Origin: Escherichia coli
GTDB taxonomy: Bacteria; Pseudomonadota; Gammaproteobacteria; Enterobacterales; Enterobacteriaceae
NCBI RefSeq assembly: GCF_045037415.1
Contig: NZ_CP173438.1
Reading direction: 5' to 3' (one strand)
DNA: 64,000 bases
This document shows, piece after piece, positions 56,009-56,115 of the stretch (position 1 is its first letter; every line of letters starts with the position of its first letter). The translations under genes and the position numbers were made by a program. The notes below the pieces were generated by a model. The model did not search any database. It was given only the letters and a program-made list of their open reading frames with translations, and was not told where the DNA came from.

Positions 56009-56011
56009 AAT

Positions 56012-56039
56012 GAAAACAGGCCCATGTGGCCTGTTTTGC
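56012..56039 (+). terminator. intrinsic terminator after sspB
   Basis: Hairpin acaggcc catgt ggcctgt followed by tttt. Confidence 0.75.
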
Positions 56040-56115
56040 TATCTGTCATCTTTTCGCCTGACTTTGATACTGTGCTACGATAGCGTCGTTATTATCCGCT
56101 AACGCATTTTCCTGA

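Follow-up and report, generated by a model that had tools for sequence, protein, structure and literature searches.

A dcuD-less sspB-nanR junction in Escherichia coli, probably an old ancestral-type allele between recombined K-12-like flanks

The junction between sspB and nanR in the window (the whole analyzed stretch of 64,000 nucleotides from Escherichia coli contig NZ_CP173438.1, assembly GCF_045037415.1) lacks dcuD, the gene that separates sspB from nanR in K-12. We consider it probable, at roughly 80%, that the window carries a B2-type dcuD-less allele of ancestral type, that is, an old haplotype joined to K-12-like flanks by recombination. Described in this way, the difference is an ordinary lineage polymorphism of a well-known kind, an indel-linked old haplotype with recombined flanks.

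The following elements make up the junction and its surroundings in the window.

55511-56008, + strand: sspB, encoding the ClpXP specificity-enhancing factor of 165 aa (open reading frame list; annotated sspB in identical RefSeq genomes)
56009-56172, no strand: mosaic tract, the old dcuD-less haplotype (site patterns and segment identities)
56013-56037, + strand: sspB terminator hairpin, AAAACAGGCC-CATGT-GGCCTGTTTT (terminator-like site; fold)
56038-56044, no strand: empty site, where K-12-type genomes hold about 1.69 kb consisting of dcuD and the AT-rich dcuD-nanR intergenic region (blastn, MAFFT)
56116-56907, + strand: nanR, annotated at 263 aa, GntR/FCD repressor of sialic-acid catabolism (open reading frame, Pfam, RefSeq)
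56971-56993, + strand: (GGTATA)3 NanR operator 5' of nanA, with GGTATA at 56971, 56980 and 56988
57029-57922, + strand: nanA, first gene of nanATEK-nanQ, on the same strand as nanR (open reading frames; RefSeq annotation of the identical locus)

The sspB gene is 99.4% identical to its K-12 counterpart at the nucleotide level, with two amino acid differences in the product. Exactly 107 bp separate its stop codon (ending at 56008) from the annotated nanR ATG (56116). The terminator hairpin has a predicted folding energy of -14.9 kcal/mol (z -3.84 against shuffled sequences); it is symmetric and also terminates the convergent dcuD in dcuD-bearing genomes, and the MAFFT alignment shows that it is kept in all aligned Escherichia, Citrobacter and Salmonella loci. 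The nanR product in an identical RefSeq genome is WP_000074796.1, and nanA, nanT, nanE, nanK and nanQ follow downstream, as judged from open reading frames and RefSeq. A search of 55800-56300 against Rfam (E<=1) found no known RNA family in the spacer. Just 3' of rpsI, at 54424-54584, weak Rfam matches on both strands (STnc370, rimP leader, istR, RsmY and isrK), all far below gathering scores, most likely reflect the rpsI terminator hairpin.

In MG1655, dcuD (b3227) sits between nanR (b3226) and sspB (b3228) and is convergent with sspB. Positions 54800-56038 of the window are collinear with K-12 at 99.0% identity and positions 56114-57100 at 96.2% (blastn). Collinearity stops at 56038, and the interval between the two blocks measures 75 bp in the window versus 1,758 bp in K-12. 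The MAFFT alignment opens a gap of 1,694 columns at window position 56044, and 1,683 K-12-only bases fall within the bin 56001-56200. No DcuD homologue was detected in the 64-kb window by tblastn with K-12 DcuD (best E 0.63), and no dcuD-derived remnant is present in the 107-bp spacer. The original prediction, which had placed dcuD between the two genes in K-12 and had described only 107 bp with the sspB terminator between them in the window, agrees with MG1655, with the spacer length and with the hairpin at 56013-56037; the alignment gives about 1.7 kb extra in K-12, where sspB and nanR are not adjacent.

The distribution of the junction was established with a query of 751 bp, counted when at least 80% of it was covered contiguously, in 5,426 complete E. 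coli genomes. The dcuD-less junction is contiguous in 1,039 of them, and in 1,033 of these carriers its identity to the window reaches 99% or more. K-12 dcuD occurs in 4,386 of the 5,426 genomes, chromosomal every time, and the other 1,040 lack it. Save for one genome, junction carriers and dcuD carriers complement each other, and junction carriers are therefore without dcuD anywhere; together with the lack of a match in the 64-kb window, these counts (1,039 versus 4,386 of 5,426) reject a relocation of dcuD and answer the question, raised with the original prediction, of whether the gene lies elsewhere in the genome. An error of assembly or sequencing in the window is scarcely conceivable as the source of the junction, given its presence in 1,039 independently assembled complete genomes and the 1,033 that reach at least 99% identity.

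Carriers of the junction include CFT073, an O25b:H4-ST131 strain, NRG 857C, NC101 and an APEC O2:K1:H4 strain, all of them established members of phylogroup B2. The junction of the window is 100% identical to those of SK1144, CFT073 and the ST131 strain. K-12 derivatives, BL21, O157:H7 and O103:H2 are dcuD-positive, and IAI39, a phylogroup F strain, has dcuD as well. With B2 attributed from recognized strain names among the 1,039 carriers, the junction of the window is the standard phylogroup B2 genotype, present in about one fifth of sequenced E. coli. RefSeq annotates it routinely. Literature searches for dcuD together with nanR, phylogroup or CFT073, and for yhcL/yhcK, returned no published description of a dcuD-less sspB-nanR polymorphism.

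A scan for NanR with one genome per species yielded 80 loci. Sampling within Escherichia comprised eight lineages, where the species identity of four (loci L004-L007) is uncertain, and the NanR loci returned contained no E. fergusonii and no named E. marmotae or E. ruysiae representative. In most loci having both genes, sspB is found directly 5' of nanR without dcuD. This adjacency is seen in Salmonella enterica subsp. arizonae, Raoultella, Kluyvera, Trabulsiella, Yokenella, Lelliottia, Buttiauxella and Cedecea, also in Citrobacter koseri, C. amalonaticus and C. sedlakii, and, besides B2 E. coli, in E. albertii (L003) and the Escherichia loci L004 and L005. Among the loci scanned, dcuD is present only in K-12, L006, L007, E. 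whittamii (L008) and loci of the Citrobacter freundii complex, at one identical site and in one orientation throughout. Loci labelled Citrobacter amalonaticus differ from each other: S646 (L022) has dcuD, and ku-bf3 and AUH_CA_2023_1 (L013/L072) do not. The dcuD polymorphism may segregate within or between close Citrobacter lineages, or these labels may cover different species.

The junction of E. albertii NBRC 107761 (L003) has the same architecture and the same 107-bp spacer as the window, and its flanks are 89-93% identical to the window, which corresponds to species-level divergence. Over its full length, the spacer of the window aligns gap-free with the E. albertii (92-94%) and L005 (84-89%) spacers; the alignment with L004 (81-88%) contains a single 1-bp gap. 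The dcuD-less layout appears to be the older one, because the genera outside Escherichia, Citrobacter and Salmonella all show direct adjacency with the same terminator-promoter layout. From this we infer the polarity, with the dcuD-less layout as the ancestral-type state in Enterobacteriaceae. The description of dcuD as absent from this locus stands, as the lack of a tblastn match shows; the cross-genus loci qualify it in that the absence would be an ancestral-type state and not a loss from a K-12-like ancestor.

Identity values of dcuD itself bear on the age of the alternative allele.

dcuD nucleotide identity, K-12 versus L006: 96.3%
dcuD nucleotide identity, K-12 versus L007: 91.7%
dcuD nucleotide identity, K-12 versus E. 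whittamii (L008): 91.4%
dcuD nucleotide identity, K-12 versus Citrobacter: 78-79%

Flanking genes of K-12 and Citrobacter are 80-82% identical, about equal to dcuD, and the divergence of dcuD tracks that of its flanks in each species pair; therefore, both alleles are old. An identity of 78-79% gives no support to a recent Citrobacter donor of dcuD. The GC content of K-12 dcuD is 51%, and that of its neighbours 52-55%. No IS element and no transposase or integrase gene is annotated between sspB and nanR in K-12, and no target duplication or terminal repeats were found at the boundaries of the K-12 dcuD segment; with the host-like GC content, this led us to reject an origin of dcuD as cargo of a mobile element.

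The state of dcuD varies among its carriers. Thirty-four dcuD-positive genomes cover less than 80% of the gene; an IS1 interrupts it in strain 300081 (H31), and 21% of it remains in MS 115-1 (H55). [quoted passage not shown] A pan-genome paper places it among 'extended-core' genes (PMC12595684). In RefSeq, PGAP labels the dcuD orthologue 'dcuC: anaerobic C4-dicarboxylate transporter DcuC' (H31-H55; IAI39, L086 9446-10813), a label that could mask the presence or absence of dcuD in name-based pan-genome tables.

Divergence between the window and K-12 rises abruptly at the junction. The bin 56001-56200 is 73.9% identical to K-12, with 52 mismatches, versus 91-100% for the other aligned 200-bp bins of 52.2-61.6 kb, which is far beyond chance. 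Nucleotide identities of the individual segments are as follows.

sspB: window versus K-12 99.4%, window versus E. albertii 92.6%; K-12 versus L007 93.8%, K-12 versus E. whittamii 94.0%
Terminator region: window versus K-12 78%, window versus E. albertii 93.8%; K-12 versus L007 90.6%, K-12 versus E. whittamii 84.4%
75-bp spacer: window versus K-12 47%, window versus E. albertii 92%; K-12 versus L007 93%, K-12 versus E. whittamii 92%
nanR codons 1-22: window versus K-12 79%, window versus E. albertii 88%; K-12 versus L007 98.5%, K-12 versus E. whittamii 97.0%
Rest of nanR: window versus K-12 96.6%, window versus E. albertii 89.5%; K-12 versus L007 91.7%, K-12 versus E. whittamii 90.6%

At the informative sites of 56009-56172, the window agrees with E. 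albertii 46 times and with K-12 not once, whereas the 112 flanking sites divide into 99 in agreement with K-12 and 13 with E. albertii (Fisher test of centre versus flanks, p=2e-28). Within the centre, K-12 and the dcuD-bearing L007 share a base against the window at 56 sites versus 4. The centre and its flanks are phylogenetically incongruent. These patterns support a left breakpoint between 55939 and 56009, putatively at the sspB stop codon, and a right breakpoint between 56169 and 56184, corresponding to nanR codons 18-23 and thus near codon 20. Two segments can be distinguished within the tract.

56009-56123, no strand: segment 1, terminator loop, spacer and nanR promoter/5'UTR, linked to the indel
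56140-56172, no strand: segment 2, nanR codons 9-19, the tail-coding patch (segment identities; E2348/69)

Each allele is trans-specific: the dcuD-less one occurs in B2 E. coli, E. albertii, L004 and L005, and the dcuD-bearing one in K-12, L006-L008 and Citrobacter. A tract of 164 bp is short, which makes dating and donor inference weak. A recent E. albertii donor of the B2 tract is not supported: at about 92% identity, tract and flanks are equally distant from E. albertii. Over 53600-56000, rplM, rpsI, sspA and sspB are 98-100% identical to K-12. The nan genes (nanR, nanA, nanT, nanE and nanK) are 91-95.5% identical to K-12 in patches at 56601-56800, 57401-57800, 58601-59400 and 60201-60600, and the nan operon appears to be a finer-scale mosaic in its own right.

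Natural recombinants between the two alleles exist. EPEC strain E2348/69 (NC_011601.1), also of phylogroup B2, resembles the window in lacking dcuD, in the 107-bp spacer, which is one base apart from that of the window (locus L083, 1522-1700), and in the MSP codons. Unlike the window, it is identical in nucleotide sequence to K-12 from codon 9 onward, with codons 9-19 encoding SQTEDSSPAIG. This combination marks it as a recombinant with a putative breakpoint between 56125 and 56140. L005 likewise combines a dcuD-less spacer with K-12-type codons 9-19; its junction has four full-length matches in E. coli genomes, all of the E2348/69 / O127:H6 lineage. The NanR tail variant and the absence of dcuD are thus separable, because E2348/69 and L005 lack dcuD and yet have K-12-type codons 9-19, and the variant tail does not necessarily accompany the dcuD-less junction.

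Conservation across genera also bears on how nanR is transcribed and where its product starts.

56053-56081, + strand: predicted nanR promoter with -35 TTCGCC (56053-56058), 17-nt spacer and extended -10 TGcTACGAT (56073-56081) (cross-genus conservation)
56125-56127, + strand: ATG of residue 4 (MNAFD...), the sole start codon conserved across genera, with TATGA.C.CATTTGAT conserved

In the alignment of nanR upstream regions, 28 loci representing more than 10 genera and both haplotypes share the motif TTT-C.CC...CTGTGnTAnGAT at a conservation of at least 80%, and its conserved CTGTGnTAnGAT lies about 17 nt 3' of the TTT-C.CC block. The two blocks are likely the -35 and extended -10 elements of nanR; a simple consensus scan of 55800-56300 gave no match to a canonical sigma-70 promoter. 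Presence of the promoter core in both haplotypes suggests that nanR keeps its own promoter. Many loci have AAG, ATA, CTG, ACA or another codon in place of the upstream ATG at 56116. The true start of NanR is probably the ATG at 56125, giving a protein of 260 aa, because this codon is conserved across genera and the one at 56116 is not. The difference at residues 2-3 (MSP vs MGL) would then probably lie in the ribosome-binding region and not in the protein.

Pfam models match NanR at residues 32-95 (GntR, E 1.4e-20) and 126-246 (FCD, E 9e-21). The protein is 97% identical to K-12 NanR, differing only at residues 2, 3, 9, 11, 15, 16 and 17. At the codon level, codons 1-22 contain seven amino acid-changing and two synonymous differences, and the other 241 codons contain none and 25, respectively. 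All seven fall within one feature.

56119-56166, + strand: codons 2-17, variable acidic/Ser-Thr-rich tail with all 7 amino acid differences (comparison with K-12)

The tail is hypervariable across genera, and the basic motif at residues 20-32 is conserved; the window NanR retains this motif within its extension, with seven of its first 17 residues changed. E. albertii NanR has a 14-residue tail in common with the window and differs from it in PA versus TT at residues 15-16 and in R versus S at residue 24. Cooperative assembly of three NanR dimers on (GGTATA)3 requires an N-terminal extension made up of residues 1-32, the first 30 of which are disordered in the crystal (Horne et al. 2021, PMC8012715). 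The variable residues most likely reflect weak constraint and old allelic divergence with no loss of function, and the variant tail and promoter are probably functionally neutral. The original prediction had described a variant NanR N-terminus followed by a matching remainder, and had taken this to fit a recombination breakpoint at the 5' end of nanR. The confinement of the differences to residues 2-17, the comparison of N-termini across lineages and the site counts of 46:0 in the centre against 13:99 in the flanks (p=2e-28) all accord with it. Its pairing of the variant N-terminus with the absence of dcuD holds in that both are real, with the qualification that E2348/69 and L005 separate the two.

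The history that we favour can be put as follows. The ancestral-type order would be sspB terminator, nanR promoter and nanR. In the alternative allele, dcuD and its AT-rich upstream region would have been inserted between the terminator and the nanR promoter, and this allele would also carry a strongly diverged nanR promoter/5'UTR and first codons. Both alleles would be old, each occurring in more than one Escherichia species. Homologous recombination would have made the flanks near-identical within E. coli, and about 164 bp beside the indel would have stayed linked to it and retained the old divergence, which would account for one breakpoint at the sspB stop and another in the region of nanR codon 20. 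Because the variable residues fall in a disordered tail under weak constraint, nanR is intact, as are its promoter and its operator. B2 could have come by the dcuD-less allele either through retention of an old polymorphism (lineage sorting) or through old introgression from another Escherichia lineage.

Among other explanations, the simplest is that this strain, or the B2 ancestor, lost dcuD by deletion from a K-12-like gene order. The gene does look dispensable, as seen from the genomes in which it is IS1-disrupted or truncated (the 34 with less than 80% coverage), and it is reportedly silent under most conditions tested (PMC6414658). However, a deletion would leave K-12-like sequence on both sides, and identity over the 75 bp before nanR is about 47% to K-12 against 92% to E. 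albertii; codons 1-22, at 79% to K-12, contradict it as well, and so do the collinearity of the 107-bp spacer with those of dcuD-less Escherichia and the agreement with E. albertii at 46 of 46 informative sites. We therefore reject a simple deletion derivative of K-12 as very improbable. A less direct route to loss would place dcuD in the shared ancestor of Escherichia, Citrobacter and Salmonella and have it removed later by several precise losses, or by one spreading loss allele, in B2, E. albertii, Salmonella, C. koseri and others. The same site and orientation of dcuD in Citrobacter and Escherichia fit this scenario, and so does its nucleotide identity (78-79%, close to the 80-82% of the flanks), as expected of long vertical residence. 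It is nevertheless unlikely: Kluyvera, Raoultella, Lelliottia, Buttiauxella, Cedecea and Trabulsiella all show direct adjacency with the same layout, repeated precise excisions restoring both terminator and promoter are unparsimonious, and no repeats that might mediate excision were found.

A further alternative concerns meaning rather than origin, namely that the B2 promoter and N-terminal tail are adaptive, through a selected NanR level or a change in cooperative binding, and are not neutral hitch-hikers. Concentration of all seven amino acid changes in the 32-residue extension that mediates three-dimer assembly would be in line with selection, as would the ratio of 7 amino acid-changing to 2 synonymous differences in codons 1-22 versus 0 to 25 in the remainder; nanR also lies 107 bp 3' of sspB on the same strand, and read-through is conceivable. 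Yet the changed positions are hypervariable in every genus, in contrast to the conserved basic motif at residues 20-32, they fall within the disordered stretch of residues 1-30 (PMC8012715), both haplotypes retain the promoter core, and E2348/69, also B2, has a K-12-type tail. We consider adaptation distinctly unlikely to be the explanation. Similarly doubtful is the broader idea that the two alleles constitute a regulatory polymorphism for sialic-acid use, maintained across species by selection. If it were true, the position of nanR behind the sspAB operon with a short hairpin between them, together with the diverged promoter/5'UTR and tail, would alter NanR dosage or assembly on (GGTATA)3, and would change nanATEK induction and NanR control of other sialoregulon targets in extraintestinal pathogenic lineages.

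Other differences from K-12 were observed in the vicinity. In the window, nanQ (61127-61591; synonym yhcH) and gltD (61659-63077) are separated by 67 bp (61592-61658). The corresponding interval of MG1655 spans about 8.4 kb and contains gltF, yhcA, yhcD, yhcE (split by IS5), yhcF and yhcG, and the K-12 alignment breaks at about 61600, which marks a second K-12 segment absent from the window. IAI39 is intermediate: a single gene, encoding a yhcG-like PDDEXK nuclease, lies between gltD and nanQ there. IAI39 also has, at 12268-13062 of locus L086, a gene with a DUF695 domain between sspA and rpsI, which is absent in both the window and K-12 (interval of about 394 bp).

A practical consequence of these results is a caution in using K-12 as the reference: here the difference from K-12 most probably represents the older gene order and not a loss. 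The junction also illustrates, compactly and within clear bounds, how an old haplotype can stay linked to an indel, and E2348/69 supplies a natural recombinant. The structurally studied K-12 NanR differs from B2 NanR exactly in the extension implicated in cooperative DNA binding, and any effect of the tail would touch sialic-acid catabolism in extraintestinal pathogenic E. coli.

Compared with the K-12 sspB-dcuD-nanR locus (b3228-b3226), the window has the same flanking genes in the same orientation, the same terminator hairpin, the same (GGTATA)3 operator and nanATEK-nanQ, and the same NanR body, with no amino acid change after residue 17; it differs by the absence of about 1.69 kb, made up of dcuD and an AT-rich dcuD-nanR intergenic region of 379 bp. 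The window also has the features described for NanR by Horne et al. 2021 (PMC8012715), namely a GntR winged helix-turn-helix domain together with an FCD domain, an extension of 32 residues and a (GGTATA)3 operator. The protein in that study was the K-12 one, whereas the window NanR has seven substitutions in residues 2-17 of the extension.

Indel-linked divergent haplotypes and recombination mosaics beside presence/absence polymorphisms are familiar in E. coli population genomics. The sspB-nanR junction resembles them in its abrupt jump in divergence by an indel, in its homogenized flanks and in having alleles common to several species. It differs from typical cases in the very small size of the tract (164 bp and one gene) and in the lack of a mobile element.
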